Shown here: positions 9,352 to 12,740 of the stretch, piece by piece
How the letters are laid out: every line of letters begins with the position of its first letter
Position numbering within the stretch: the stretch's first letter is position 1
Assembly: GCA_048882045.1 (NCBI GenBank)
Contig: JBHLRZ010000001.1
Span: 189,171 to 253,170, forward strand
Length of the DNA: 64,000 nucleotides
Direction: 5' to 3'
Source of the DNA: Candidatus Thorarchaeota archaeon
Lineage (GTDB): Archaea; Asgardarchaeota; Thorarchaeia; Thorarchaeales; Thorarchaeaceae
Made by a program: the position numbers and the translations under genes
The notes under the pieces: model-generated
Seen by the model: the letters and a program-made list of their open reading frames with translations, nothing else
What the model was told of the DNA's origin: nothing
Database searches by the model: none

Positions 9352-9798
9352 ATGACTCTCGATTATGATCTGATGCAGCGACTAGTAGAAGACCTCAATG
9401 TGGGAATTTGTGTCCTCGATAAGGACGACAATATTGTGGTATTCAATCGTAAGGCCGGTGAGCAATTACACCAAGACAATAAGAGCCGAATCAGTTCATC
9501 CATTTTACGCTGTCATCCAGAACGGGCTGAAGCAGGAGTACTCAAGATGATTGGGGAGCTGAAGAGTGGGAAACTCGAAAAGTACGAGGGGTGGGTCCAT
9601 TTCATTGGTAGACATTTCTATGAGTACATCTATCCCATCAAAGACGACAATGGTAAGTATCTTGCAACTGTGATGGAGCTACATGATGCTGCTGAGAGAG
9701 CAGAATATCTTAGAATAACTGAAGGCTGGAATCCCCCAGAAGAGCACGGACTCGGAGAGAGCTCACCAAGGGCGCCATTTCCTAAGAAGTTCAAGTAA
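9352..9798 (+). CDS. Stand-alone PAS domain protein
   Basis: GICVLDKDDNIVVFN, CHP motif, YPIKDDNGKYLATVME; ORF can extend to 9334. Confidence 0.8.
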   Translation: MTLDYDLMQRLVEDLNVGICVLDKDDNIVVFNRKAGEQLHQDNKSRISSSILRCHPERAEAGVLKMIGELKSGKLEKYEGWVHFIGRHFYEYIYPIKDDNGKYLATVMELHDAAERAEYLRITEGWNPPEEHGLGESSPRAPFPKKFK

Positions 9799-10309
9799 AT
9801 GAGTCGTCACCCTTACTTATTGACCCGGGTTTAAGCAGTGCCCTTAGGATGTAACCAATGAACCCAATAAGACCAGCAATCAAACAGAAATTATACACTG
9901 CTCCAAACGTGAACAGATTTACGAATGGATTTCCTAGAACTGGGAAGAAAGGATTCATTTCAGCATAGAGAAACGAATCAAGAAAGACATGGGAATATGT
10001 GCCCACAAAGCTTGCTCCAATGATGTGACGGAGAGATGATGTCTGATGGAGTCCGAATAATGATACGATACTATTCAGATATTTGCGAAATGGGTACACA
10101 AATCCTGAAAGAACCAGCGCAGCAATCGTTGCTCCAAGATATGTGTGAAAGAATCCATGAAGAGGATATGGCAAACTAAGGAACATGATGGCCATTGGTT
10201 CCAGATCAACAATCACACTTGCTATCATTAATGTGACCAAATCAACAAAGGGAAAGAGAAGAATTCCTAGAAGAAGACTAGGACCGAAGTGGTAAGGTGT
10301 GAATGGCAT
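9791..10309 (-). CDS. Membrane-bound metal-dependent hydrolase-like protein (YdjM/DUF4184-like)
   Basis: Starts MPFTPYH; DLE, HGFFHT, SHVFLDS motifs with hydrophobic helices. Confidence 0.75.
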   Translation of the reverse strand: MPFTPYHFGPSLLLGILLFPFVDLVTLMIASVIVDLEPMAIMFLSLPYPLHGFFHTYLGATIAALVLSGFVYPFRKYLNSIVSLFGLHQTSSLRHIIGASFVGTYSHVFLDSFLYAEMNPFFPVLGNPFVNLFTFGAVYNFCLIAGLIGFIGYILRALLKPGSISKGDDSFT

Positions 10310-10425
10310 CGATCTATAACTCACAGCTTCACGTAATAAGTTACATGAACTAAGGAAAGTTGTACGAAAGAAACGGAGTATGTTCTCCCACTCTGTCAGA
10401 AAATTCGAAATGCTACAGAAGAAGC

Positions 10426-10498
10426 GAAATCCCCCGTCCACCCCGTTGAGAACAGAAAGAAGGAGAACATTCCAATCTTCATGACCGGGGGACTTCAT
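10426..10498 (-). ncRNA. Candidate hairpin small RNA (or structured 5' leader)
   Basis: GAAGUCCCCCG/CGGGGGAUUUC stem whose single mismatch is a G.U pair only on the minus strand; BRE/TATA at 10533-10519 lies about 25 nt upstream. Confidence 0.4.
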
Positions 10499-10518
10499 TG
10501 ATACGGTAACAACATTAC

Positions 10519-10565
10519 GTAATATATTTTTCGCTTTGTGATTATGTTACCGAAAGATATATTAC
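10519..10565. promoter_or_regulatory. Back-to-back divergent BRE-TATA promoters
   Basis: Minus strand CGAAAAATATATTAC (10533-10519) and plus strand CGAAAGATATATTAC (10551-10565), 14/15 identical. Confidence 0.65.
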
Positions 10566-10574
10566 TTGTAACAT

Positions 10575-10587
10575 GTAATACTATTTC
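10575..10587. promoter_or_regulatory. Putative operator GTAATACTATT(A/T)C
   Basis: 12/13 match to the palindrome at 11870-11882; related copy at 10328-10346. Confidence 0.55.
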
Positions 10588-10704
10588 GAGGTATTTGGAT
10601 GATTCAGCGAATCAATGACTGCTTCGGACTGGTAATAACTGGTCGAATCAATTTCGATGACAACATTGTCACTGAATCCTCACTCATATCGGAGGAGATA
10701 GAGA

Positions 10705-11331
10705 ATGTTTGATAATAGAAACCAAAGAGTTGCATTTGCAACTGGAATCCTGTTCATACTTGTACTGGCTGTCTTCGGTTCACTGTTTGCAGCCGCTTCT
10801 ATGAGCATGAACAATACTATGGCTGTGCTGCCGGATAGTCACTCTGCTGAGGATACAGCAGCTCTTGCCTGGCGCCTTGATCCTGGTGAATCAATGTCAA
10901 TTGACTTTCGATTAGATCCAGGTGAAACTGCTACAATTGACTTTCGACTTGATCCCAGTGAAACCGTTTCAATTGACTACAGAATCAATCAAGCTGAAGC
11001 CATTTCTGGTGGTAGGAGTGATCCTGGCATGGCAAGTATGGTTGACTGGCGTCTTGATCCTGGTGAAGAGACAGCTGTGGACTATCAGAGAGAGCTAGGT
11101 CAGGTCGTATCAGTTGACTTCCGCCTAGACCCAGGTCAGACAGTGTCAATTGATTTCAGGCTTGATACTGGTGAAGTGGTATCTGTCGATTTCAAGCTTG
11201 ATCCAGGTGAGACTGTTTCTGTTGACTTTCGCCTTGATCCCAGTGAAACCGTTTCAATTGACTACAGGTATGCCGCTGAAGTATTAAGTGGATCAGGCGG
11301 AGAGCTAGGAATGCTCTATGTAGTCGATTAG
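10705..11331 (+). CDS. Secreted or membrane-anchored protein with about 12 tandem 12-aa repeats (DFRLDPGETVSI)
   Basis: GGAGGAG RBS; hydrophobic N-terminal signal/anchor (aa about 9-31); repeats conserved at protein level with synonymous variation. Confidence 0.85.
   Translation: MFDNRNQRVAFATGILFILVLAVFGSLFAAASMSMNNTMAVLPDSHSAEDTAALAWRLDPGESMSIDFRLDPGETATIDFRLDPSETVSIDYRINQAEAISGGRSDPGMASMVDWRLDPGEETAVDYQRELGQVVSVDFRLDPGQTVSIDFRLDTGEVVSVDFKLDPGETVSVDFRLDPSETVSIDYRYAAEVLSGSGGELGMLYVVD
10867..11268 (+). repeat. In-frame 36-bp coding tandem repeat
   Basis: About 12 degenerate units; 10937-10982 and 11222-11267 match at 45/46 nt. Confidence 0.9.
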
Positions 11332-11491
11332 ACGGAATGTAAGCCCAACCCCGAAGAAGAAAGAAGGAGAACGCTTGGTTTTTCAGGAAAAGAGTGCCAA
11401 GGCACTCTTTCTAATCTTATTTTCATATTCACAAAACCCACTGCAATATGAAAGCACATACTTCAAAAATGAAATCCAAGAGAACTGATTT

Positions 11492-11827
11492 CTACTTCTC
11501 TTGGAATGCTTCAAAGGCATGCTTCTTGGCGGAATCGCGAAGTTTGCGAATATCGGCGGCTTGAACTTTGATCTGTTCGAACATTTGACTTCTAGCGGCA
11601 ATTGCTTGTTCTACAAAAGCAGACACAGCTTCTGATCGACTTTTGAAAATCTCGAGTTCAACTAATGCATCAAGGATTTCAACGATGTCGCCACTCATTC
11701 GAGTCATCACTGAAACTTCACGCTTCTTTGAAAGGTCATCTTCAGAAAGACGGCCTAGGAGTTGTTCTCGAAGACTCACTTGAACCGCCTCTGTTTTTGA
11801 TTCTTTAGTGTCGGGCACATCTTTCAC
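11492..11827 (-). CDS. Ribbon-helix-helix (CopG/MetJ-like) regulator with C-terminal coiled coil
   Basis: VSVMTRM strand followed by DIVEILDALVELEIFKSRSEAVSAFVEQAI. Confidence 0.78.
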   Translation of the reverse strand: MKDVPDTKESKTEAVQVSLREQLLGRLSEDDLSKKREVSVMTRMSGDIVEILDALVELEIFKSRSEAVSAFVEQAIAARSQMFEQIKVQAADIRKLRDSAKKHAFEAFQEK

Positions 11828-11869
11828 CTCATGATACTATAGACATGAAATCTTATAATTCTTTTTCAC

Positions 11870-11882
11870 GTAATACTATTAC
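11870..11882. promoter_or_regulatory. Palindromic operator upstream of the RHH gene
   Basis: GTAATA-C-TATTAC perfect inverted repeat abutting a minus-strand BRE/TATA (GAAAAAGAATTATAA). Confidence 0.6.
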
Positions 11883-12002
11883 ATAATCCACTATATAAAA
11901 GGTTCTAAATGTGAAAAAAATTCGACCAACTGTTTGTCCTGTTGATTCTTGAGGCTTGAACAGCAATTGATTCTGTATAGATGTGGTCACCTGTTCCTCT
12001 TT

Positions 12003-12332: not shown

Positions 12333-12467
12333 ATCTATGTCCCCAGCTTTCTCTCTTCAAGACTGGTAAACCCATATCAAGCATCTGTTATGGACAAATC
12401 ATTGTTCTACGACAATCCTTAAGATATCTAGAACTTCGGCATGCTTCGTTTCAAAAGAGGTTGTTTC

Positions 12468-12740
12468 ATGGCTTACTGTGTGATGGTCAAAGGTCCATGC
12501 CGTGGAAAAAAGTGTGACTACTGGGGGAGAGTGAAAATCAGGAAATCCTCAGTGGAAGAACTTGCTGCTGGAATACGAAAGGCCATTGCGCAGTGTGATG
12601 GGCAAGAAACAGTGGCAAGGGAGGATGCACTTCGAGAGTACTGGCACTATATTGGTGTCAGAAACATGAAACGACTCTGTGAAGAAGAGCCAGACCTCTG
12701 CGCTAAAATGACTGAGGCAGAGGTCCAAGCCCAGGTCTAA
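12468..12740 (+). CDS. Small Cys-rich hypothetical protein
   Basis: GAGGT RBS; MAYCVMVKGPCRGKKCDYW, six Cys in total. Confidence 0.6.
   Translation: MAYCVMVKGPCRGKKCDYWGRVKIRKSSVEELAAGIRKAIAQCDGQETVAREDALREYWHYIGVRNMKRLCEEEPDLCAKMTEAEVQAQV

Follow-up and report, generated by a model that had tools for sequence, protein, structure and literature searches.

The 64,000-nucleotide stretch of DNA analyzed here, referred to as the window, comes from a Candidatus Thorarchaeota archaeon (assembly GCA_048882045.1, contig JBHLRZ010000001.1, positions 189,171 to 253,170 of the forward strand). Its + strand carries at 10705..11331, stop codon included, an open reading frame (ORF) for a protein of 208 amino acids, P0001, in which a hydrophobic N-terminal helix is followed by an array of short and very regular repeats. 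An earlier note on this DNA, made from the sequence alone, had delimited exactly this ORF and had proposed an archaeal origin, which is borne out by relatives of P0001 in metagenome-assembled genomes (MAGs) of Candidatus Thorarchaeota. A Shine-Dalgarno-like GGAGGAG (10691..10697, +) lies 7 nt before the ATG, and a gene for a 111-residue protein of ribbon-helix-helix (RHH) type (11492..11827, -) converges on the repeat gene, adjoining it in every locus with enough flank. P0001 is present as a single copy in its own genome, a 3.6-Mb MAG of 93 contigs that is 93% complete.

The N-terminal region of P0001 (residues 1-39; 10705..10821, +) comprises a basic N-terminus, a hydrophobic helix at residues 9-31 ending in A-x-A and a conserved S/W-M-S-M-N-N-T-M motif. 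It is joined to the repeats by an acidic linker (residues 40-55; 10822..10869, +), for which AlphaFold2 gives a predicted local distance difference test (pLDDT) value of 41. Repeat block A (residues 56-114; 10870..11046, +) then contains one W-unit, two F-units and a tail unit of 23 residues (92-114; 10978-11046, +), and repeat block B (residues 115-208; 11047..11328, +) contains a W-unit, a divergent Y-unit, four F-units and a tail unit of 22 residues (187-208; 11263-11328, +). The two blocks thus share an identical order of parts, from W-unit through F/Y-units to a tail unit, and the two tail units, which are alike, each close one block. Canonical 12-mers start at nine positions (56, 68, 80, 115, 127, 139, 151, 163 and 175) and follow the consensus F-R-L-D-P-G-E-T-V-S-I-D, the unit at residue 127 being the divergent Y-unit. 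The "about 12 copies" of the earlier note are therefore a fair description of a repeat region of 153 residues, or 12.75 unit lengths, but only nine units are canonical, and one of these is divergent. Each unit exposes I/V, F/Y/W and L on one side and S, D, R and D on the other, and has, next to Glu, Arg and Pro, two Asp that are invariant or nearly so. The predicted exported part comprises 169 residues and has a net charge of about -23. V, L, I, F, Y, W and M account for 55 of its residues (about a third), and it contains 4 Gln, 1 Asn and no Cys.

The periodicity of the array exceeds chance at both the DNA and the protein level. Tandem Repeats Finder detected arrays with a 36-nt period at 10879-10978 and 11113-11255, and amino-acid identity within P0001 reached 0.43 at lag 12, compared to a maximum of 0.18 in 2000 shuffles over lags 2-39. 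Hydrophobicity followed the pattern of a beta strand, the beta-type moment (180 degrees) being strongly elevated (z = +5.2, 500 shuffles) and the alpha-type moment (100 degrees) depressed (z = -2.7, 500 shuffles), with the highest Fourier periods at 2.0 and 11.8 residues. The beta character of the repeats, which the earlier note had described as amphipathic, is thus well supported by sequence statistics. Codon usage varies synonymously across units (Arg CGC/CGA/CGT/AGG; Leu CTT/TTA/CTA; Pro CCT/CCA/CCC). When units were compared with each other and pooled, the proportion of synonymous differences (pS) was 0.66 and that of nonsynonymous differences (pN) 0.26 (pN/pS 0.39), and at lag 36 third codon positions were the least alike (identity 0.43, as against 0.58 for first and 0.60 for second positions). 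Such codon divergence marks the units as old copies rather than fresh products of slippage, kept by selection on the protein, which the earlier note had likewise deduced from the synonymous variation.

One pair of units stands apart, in that unit 80-91 (10942..10977, +) is identical at 35 of 36 nt to unit 175-186 (11227-11262) and appears to be the trace of a recent internal duplication or conversion tract. Short-read contigs of three DNA runs break at this internal 25-35-nt duplicate (10953-10977, 11238-11262). The assembly of the repeat in the window is nevertheless supported, because in run X1 the three pieces of the array have matching depths (29, 28.4 and 20.6), with the internal duplicate at about double (52). 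No repeat-number variants were seen in the contigs of runs X1, X5, X6 and X7, the sole variant inside the gene being a synonymous single-nucleotide polymorphism (11284 T>C). In MAGs, genes with internal duplicates of this kind readily collapse or break, and some of the "missing" orthologs may be accounted for in this way.

It is the N-terminus that is conserved throughout the genus. Residues 1-8 of P0001 are basic, and residues 9-31 form a run of 23 hydrophobic residues ending in Ala-Ala-Ala. Given a 17-row family alignment, AlphaFold2 built a single 33-residue helix at residues 4-36, with mean pLDDT values of 86, 98 and 95 for the three 10-residue blocks of residues 1-30. Across the genus the first 45 residues can be aligned (10 species, 7 invariant columns), with Gly25, Ala31, Ser34 and Asn36 invariant in the helix region. 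The ratio of nonsynonymous to synonymous substitution rates (dN/dS) of this part ranges from 0.1 to 0.8 in the 34 pairs with a defined value, dS being about 1 or saturated in most. According to the positive-inside rule, a basic N-terminus with a long hydrophobic helix leads to N-in/C-out insertion, and by the -3/-1 rule an A-x-A may serve as signal-peptidase site; we take the A-x-A at residues 29-31 to be such a possible site. On the basis of these two rules, the N-terminus should act either as a signal-anchor (N-in, C-out) or as a cleaved Sec-type signal, in agreement with the signal or anchor described in the earlier note. Because the 23-residue helix, with its invariant residues, is the best-conserved part of the protein, we rate its retention as a membrane anchor no less likely than its cleavage as a signal, and the helix probably tethers P0001.

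Two further readings of the N-terminus were rejected. Class III signal peptides, as found in archaeal type IV pilins and archaellins, have a short basic leader that ends in Lys or Arg followed by Gly or Ala and is cleaved directly ahead of the hydrophobic helix. In all 10 N-termini compared, the residues before the helix read Q/H-R-V without Gly or Ala at -1, and neither Pfam nor NCBIfam returned a pilin family for P0001. An N-glycosylation sequon at N36 is not a conserved trait, as it is missing in three orthologs (L013, L011, L039). A lipobox-like Cys follows the helix in some divergent orthologs only.

Searches of sequence and profile libraries returned no family that fits P0001. Among the 15 Pfam rows considered (E up to 1), the Fn3-like family PF14310 reached 33.8 bits for the whole protein (cut-off 25), its best stretch placing residues 69-93 on positions 28-52 of a 71-position profile, and NEW3 (NPCBM_assoc, PF10633) reached 21 bits (E 3.8e-4, cut-off 24.4) on positions 34-70 of 78. 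In both cases the repeat unit aligns to the L-x-P-G-E/Q-S/T strand-turn-strand element of bacterial Ig-like sandwiches. These partial hairpin matches, together with others to Ig-like families, agree with the resemblance to LxPGE-type turns of beta sandwiches that the earlier note had pointed out. We rejected membership in these sandwich families, since one hairpin is matched and not the whole domain of 71-78 positions; P0001 reiterates this one hairpin and never completes a domain, so that the likeness is one of motif. NCBIfam yielded sub-threshold fragments only (SitI3, 23.6 bits against a cut-off of 31), and a sequence search of the PDB gave nothing significant (best E 0.081 for a PepSY propeptide, then 0.8 for a GH116 glucosidase hairpin). 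An exhaustive HMMER search of 1.8 billion representatives produced 48 matches, of which about 14 either carry the N-terminus of the family or represent pieces of its members. Ten long or divergent ones were identified by sequence as unrelated low-complexity repeat proteins, and the remaining long matches were set aside because they show a like pattern in the table of matches, not on their sequences. Judged by its sequence, P0001 belongs to no known family, which matches the lack of recognition in the earlier note.

The structure of the repeats can be approached by modelling and by the geometry of the unit. Both AlphaFold2 runs, with and without the family alignment, placed strands of 7-10 residues on the units at low confidence. 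A modelling of the monomer, as the earlier note had recommended, therefore delivered a confident helix and strands in the expected places, but neither confidence in the repeats nor a solenoid. A Foldseek search of the PDB with the single-sequence model gave no match at E <= 0.001, which is uninformative with a model of such low confidence, and the ESM Atlas feature search gave no usable match. Strands 63-71 and 74-83 of the alignment-based AlphaFold2 model imply a two-residue Pro-Gly turn, with which consecutive strands would direct their oily faces to opposite sides of the sheet. In an antiparallel register with the aromatic residue at its centre, by comparison, two Asp-Arg pairs, two pairs of Ile/Val with Leu and a Phe-Phe pair would form; P-G-E-x-V would then be a loop of five residues, and the sheet would have an oily face and a charged one. 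In a parallel solenoid, the invariant Asp residues would instead lie stacked on each other. This register and its charge pairing, combined with the lack of a 24-residue period, lead us to slightly favour hairpin-type packing over a two-sheet solenoid. Because AlphaFold2 and ESM Atlas are of low confidence on the repeats, the models themselves accommodate a solenoid, a hairpin meander and an amyloid alike.

The earlier note had gone further and read the array as a functional amyloid or beta-solenoid, in which pairs of units form strand-arc-strand rungs of about 24 residues and molecules stack or template each other into extracellular fibres of a matrix or appendage. Several features are of this kind. 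Strict alternation of polar and non-polar residues, as seen in the units, favours cross-beta assembly; several orthologs have a 21-residue two-strand super-unit of the size of a curli rung; the tail elements at both block ends could act as caps; and an RTX-type beta-roll cluster is among the nearest structural neighbours of the low-confidence ESM Atlas model (template modelling score 0.52), which serves as a lead only. The two-sheet arrangement with 24-residue rungs found no support in the sequence, however, since P0001 has no 24-residue super-period, identity at lag 24 (0.35) being lower than at lag 12 (0.43), and the 21-residue units of the orthologs fit the hairpin and solenoid models alike. 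Pro and charged residues usually counter aggregation, and since each unit has two Asp plus Glu, Arg and Pro and the net charge is -23, units stacked in parallel and in register would bring like charges on top of one another. Moreover, the conserved N-terminal helix suggests that the protein stays on the cell, and Pfam contains no Curlin or other amyloid family for it. AlphaFold2 gave no confident solenoid model here, despite its tendency to over-predict beta-solenoids for repeats that is described in the accessible part of PMC11795689. We thus regard an amyloid or solenoid of this type as unlikely.

Comparison with characterized systems leads in the same direction. Like the curli and Fap subunits CsgA and FapC, P0001 is a small, predicted exported protein built almost wholly of short and imperfect strand-turn repeats, and super-units of 21-24 residues with two strands in some orthologs match the size of a curli rung. 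The curlin repeat consensus is rich in Gln, Asn and Ser, whereas the units of P0001 are charged and contain Pro. There is also no sequence relation (no Curlin among the Pfam rows), no 24-residue period, no nucleator or secretion gene near P0001, and a conserved N-terminal helix that may be retained. A simple secreted subunit of curli type, as the earlier note had envisaged, is further disfavoured by the conservation of this helix through the genus and by sister orthologs that have other repeats or hardly any. RTX beta-rolls (HemolysinCabind) resemble P0001 as acidic, Asp-bearing and very short tandem repeats on an exported protein (predicted here). RTX repeats are tandem nonapeptides of the form GGxGxDxUx that stay disordered until Ca2+ binds, and by analogy a Ca2+-dependent folding would fit the low model confidence of P0001. 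In contrast to RTX proteins, P0001 lacks the GGxGxDxUx motif and a Pfam match to PF00353, has a period of 12 instead of 9, and has an acidity that is not conserved among its orthologs, the units of L015, for example, having equal numbers of Asp and Arg.

The 12-residue period recurs in the beetle antifreeze protein TmAFP, a beta-helix in which every 12-residue coil has a Cys pair and T-C-T arrays bind ice, and bacterial ice-nucleation proteins, with 16-residue repeats, likewise combine N-terminal membrane attachment with a long repeat array and a C-terminal cap. P0001 lacks the disulfide ladder that holds a 12-residue coil together, because its ectodomain is devoid of Cys; it also has no T-x-T arrays and no sequence relation to these proteins, and its habitat is sediment or mangrove according to the sequencing-run labels. 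Among archaea, the sheath protein of Methanospirillum hungatei is presented in the accessible part of PMC10593813 as an extracellular beta-rich structural protein with a proposed amyloid-like assembly; it shares with P0001 an archaeal origin and this general character, but is a large methanogen protein without tandem repeats and bore no relation to P0001 in our searches. Neither the full-text searches nor the available sections of the preprint PMC13734099 mention the P0001 family, and these sections report no beta-solenoids among Asgard-eukaryote clusters.

To trace the family, we combined whole-protein, profile and neighbourhood evidence. A whole-protein search found orthologs in 10 of 27 genomes of the same genus and in none of 33 others. 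Profile A3, which covers the first 45 residues and scores 85.3 bits on the window gene, matched 11 of 14 sampled genomes of the genus (seven of them additional), none of 29 genomes of other genera in the family and, weakly, 2 of 157 genomes in other families of the phylum. These two weak matches, and a second weak one in G017, proved to be ordinary signal peptides on surface-type proteins without relation to P0001 and were not counted. That the profile weakly matches ordinary signal peptides, those of the Asgard surface-type proteins L031 and L033, speaks for an export of P0001. Beside the conserved RHH neighbour in four genomes that had been missed, we found three more orthologs and one disrupted copy. 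The total thus amounts to at least 20 of the 27 genomes of the genus (one, G012, with in-frame stops), plus a broken copy in a 21st. In a metagenome scan, L039 emerged as a true ortholog, on a metagenome contig, and L040 as a false positive, being a peptidase-like ORF with an 8-residue word in common; a scan of viral_contigs returned no relative of P0001. The name "MnhE subunit" that JGI attaches to ortholog P0005 was not adopted, as no Pfam match on P0001 backs it. P0001 shares with its orthologs the conserved 45-residue N-terminus and the convergent position with the RHH gene, and the result is a genus-restricted family of a familiar general kind.

Beyond the N-terminus, the orthologs differ radically. 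Across species, ectodomains are made of 12-mers like those of the window, of 21-residue super-units that combine a 12-mer and a 9-mer (P0003, P0005, P0006, P0018), of runs of 9-mers, of 10-11-mers of other sequence (265 aa) or of 15-mers starting with Arg-Arg (three units in L030), or are nearly free of repeats (104-116 aa); the shortest ectodomains have about 60 residues and the longest about 220. The longest ortholog, the protein of 265 aa with 10-11-residue units (G004; L017/L006), contains a run of N inside the array, and its true length is uncertain. A short core of hydrophobic-Asp-aromatic-Arg/Lys and a hydrophobic C-terminal tail recur across ectodomains; the tail motif G-hydrophobic-x-x-hydrophobic-hydrophobic-D also terminates several orthologs, and the short orthologs have a common terminal motif of 16-17 residues, which is doubled in G016. 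Since orthologs of sister species have other repeat units or hardly any, the 12-mer architecture does not, on these alignments, define the family. The variation in repeats that the earlier note had suggested looking for among homologues thus exists between species, in type as well as in length, but not in the ortholog L039, whose array is gapless, nor in the contigs of the four runs described above.

L039 provides a closer view of how the array evolves. It has 208 aa and aligns to P0001 without gaps, with 166 of 208 residues identical (79%), and the two genes differ by a dS of 0.54 and a dN of 0.11 (dN/dS 0.20), which again places selection at the protein level. By part, the ratio is 0.21 in the repeats (block A 0.15, block B 0.24) and 0.19 in the N-terminus. 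For all nine P0001 units the best match in L039 is its own counterpart (two ties), orthologous pairs sharing 10.3 of 12 residues and other pairs 7.3. Because each unit matches its own counterpart best, the units do not behave as interchangeable copies. The array has kept its number, order and individual units during fast evolution under clear purifying selection, a behaviour that fits a defined fold rather than exchangeable peptide copies.

These data bear directly on the alternative offered by the earlier note, a multi-copy peptide precursor in which a conserved export or leader part precedes repeats that are cut at Arg or Asp-Pro into short signalling or bioactive peptides, as in yeast alpha-factor or multi-core precursors of ribosomally synthesized and post-translationally modified peptides (RiPPs). 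A conserved N-terminus with species-specific C-terminal repeats is indeed found in pheromone and RiPP precursors, Arg or Lys bounds each unit, and both the three Arg-Arg units of L030 and the shared end motif of the short orthologs, with its doubling in G016, would suit such a role. Copies of one peptide should, however, be near-identical and exchangeable, whereas the units of P0001 share a mean of 7.3 of 12 residues and keep their individual identity in the ortholog. Strand and turn positions are equally under selection, the layout in two blocks with tail units resembles a domain, and the leader is a full membrane-spanning helix in the AlphaFold2 model. Nor does the gene have an evident conserved maturation enzyme beside it: the RHH protein is its only constant neighbour, and the YdjM-like putative membrane hydrolase described below adjoins it in some loci. 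A peptide precursor is thus disfavoured, and we hold it to be very unlikely.

A more serious contender is a membrane-tethered acidic chain without a fixed fold, i.e. a disordered brush or spacer, or a young orphan with a weakly constrained ectodomain and with any function residing in the transmembrane helix, for example as a small subunit of a membrane complex. The helix, with its invariant Gly25, Ala31, Ser34 and Asn36, would be compatible with such a function; the ectodomain cannot be aligned between many species in which the neighbouring genes are 60-90% identical, and it varies several-fold in length; all models of the repeats are of low confidence; some genomes have a broken copy of the gene or none; and the repeat protein evolves far faster than its RHH neighbour (dN 0.11 versus 0). 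On the other hand, V, L, I, F, Y, W and M make up 55 of the 169 residues of the ectodomain, in a strict alternation that is unlike disordered regions, the dN/dS of the repeats (0.21) is about that of the N-terminus with no insertions or deletions over a dS of 0.54, and the identities of the units are conserved. We therefore consider a chain of this sort possible and rather doubtful.

We give about an even chance to the reading that P0001 is a small, genus-specific and acidic beta-repeat protein that is displayed on the cell surface, adopts a defined fold and acts in a structural or adhesive capacity. The basic N-terminus and the 23-residue hydrophobic helix would carry the C-terminal part across the membrane, and the helix would then be kept as an N-in/C-out anchor or be cut after the A-x-A at 29-31. 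The exported part would consist of two blocks of 12-residue strand-plus-turn units, each closed by a longer tail element, with P-G-E forming the turn between strands. With one oily strand face per unit, the array should fold into an amphipathic beta structure whose oily face needs a cover, be it a second sheet, a second molecule or a rolling up of the array. Export, topology and fold class are deduced here from sequence features, and a structural, adhesive or coat-like role is suggested by analogy.

A number of observations weigh against this surface-protein reading. The strands that AlphaFold2 placed on the units with the 17-row alignment have pLDDT values of 40-63, the run without alignment gave a mean of 47.6 for the ectodomain with 7-residue strands every 12 residues, and ESM Atlas's own model has a pLDDT of 0.47; such low confidence in all repeat models would also suit an ectodomain that is disordered or that folds only under certain conditions. 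Since repeat types turn over radically among species, this particular fold cannot be essential to the role of the family. In addition, the gene is broken or absent in some genomes. The G012 match (L008) has two in-frame stops (TGA and TAA), the G018 ortholog (L037 1149-1467) reaches a stop after 37 codons and has its C-terminal part in another frame, and G001, which is 97% complete, yielded neither a copy of the repeat gene nor a match to the RHH neighbour. The stops in G018 and G012 may stem from decay of the gene in some lineages or from misassembly of the repeats. Finally, the surface role is argued from analogy, and the sequencing-run search listed no RNA run with the locus.

A bolder version would make P0001 a self-assembling beta module. 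The core S-I-D-F-R-L-D is physico-chemically palindromic, and through the antiparallel, aromatic-centred pairing described above it could zip units of one molecule or of several into an amphipathic cross-beta sheet or fibre that the conserved N-terminal helix tethers to the membrane. P0001 would then form a functional amyloid or surface lattice peculiar to this archaeal lineage, with no relation to curli, Fap and sheath proteins. We regard this version as improbable.

The genes around P0001 form a recurrent setting. Orthologs of the RHH neighbour are 70-89% identical and always lie tail-to-tail with the repeat gene, and compared with L039 the neighbour shows no nonsynonymous change in 89 codons. 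Its family matches are weak only (NikR-type, E 0.04; NCBIfam), and we read it, on sequence grounds, as a ribbon-helix-helix protein. Because it has paralogs (five matches in its own genome, including contigs C35, C37 and C42, and up to five in relatives) and because its family extends far outside the genus (present in 32 of 36 searched genomes of the archaeal family), its distribution is not that of a dedicated partner of the repeat gene. The repeat gene usually lies downstream of a PAS gene and of a gene for a YdjM-like putative membrane hydrolase (26.3 bits in Pfam, below the cut-off of 29), which adjoins the repeat gene in some loci and is about 5 kb away in other relatives. In the window, the YdjM-like ORF of 235 aa (9791-10498, -) is probably over-extended: its orthologs have 172 aa and start at an internal M-P-F-T-P-Y-H-F, and with a start near 10309 the gap between this ORF and the repeat gene would grow to about 395 bp. 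On the other side, several relatives carry between the RHH and YgbA-like genes a block of about 4 kb with four co-directional hydrogenase-like genes (L015 7154-11111), which is absent from the window (compare 11828-12002); with a large-subunit-like ORF that has Cys motifs near both ends, it resembles a [NiFe]-hydrogenase module. Between the YgbA-like gene and a gene for an FAD-linked oxidase lies a Cys-rich ORF of 99 aa (12441-12740, +) that is 67-75% identical in relatives and has no Pfam or NCBIfam match. PADLOC assigned no family to the repeat gene and three neighbours, and Rfam returned two rows at chance level for 10300-11900, so that no defence, phage or RNA family was found at the locus with PADLOC, viral_contigs and Rfam.

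The region upstream of the repeat gene is conserved, too. An inverted repeat with arms GTAATATATYTTTCG (10519-10533, +; 10551-10565, -), 15 bp each and 17 bp apart, with a TATA-like stretch in each arm, precedes the gene by about 140-185 nt. Both arms are exact, and the window contains these two matches and no others at <=2 mismatches (0.16 expected); in the 3.6-Mb genome, a 20-mer containing the first arm has no second occurrence at <=3 mismatches. The 200 nt that precede the ATG show striking conservation in an alignment of five species with nearly saturated synonymous sites, almost all columns of the inverted repeat being invariant, and the Shine-Dalgarno sequence, spacer and ATG (GGAGGAGATAGA-AATG) are invariant in 5/5 species except for one A/G column. 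Since the base pairs of the inverted repeat never vary, they suit a DNA site and an RNA hairpin equally, and the element is a candidate operator, two-way promoter core or leader hairpin. Conservation of this kind argues for regulated expression. Between the convergent genes, both the minimum-free-energy and the centroid fold of 11332-11491 contain a G+C-rich hairpin followed by T-rich sequence (11386..11412), a possible two-way terminator; the fold of the region as a whole is unexceptional (z = -1.4).

Asgard archaea are the closest prokaryotic relatives of eukaryotes, and to our knowledge almost nothing is known about their cell surface, the Thorarchaeota being uncultured. Against this background, P0001 represents a compact, predicted exported protein that is specific to one genus, is of very regular design and has no relatives in the protein libraries searched. 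Its ectodomain of about 170 residues offers a cheap target for work on folding, metal dependence and self-assembly. If the self-assembly version were true, P0001 would be a new archaeal functional amyloid or lattice; otherwise it would be a lineage-specific surface protein of ordinary interest. For the family, the data point to an orthologous surface gene that swaps its whole repeat type between sister species, yet appears to be under purifying selection within each lineage.

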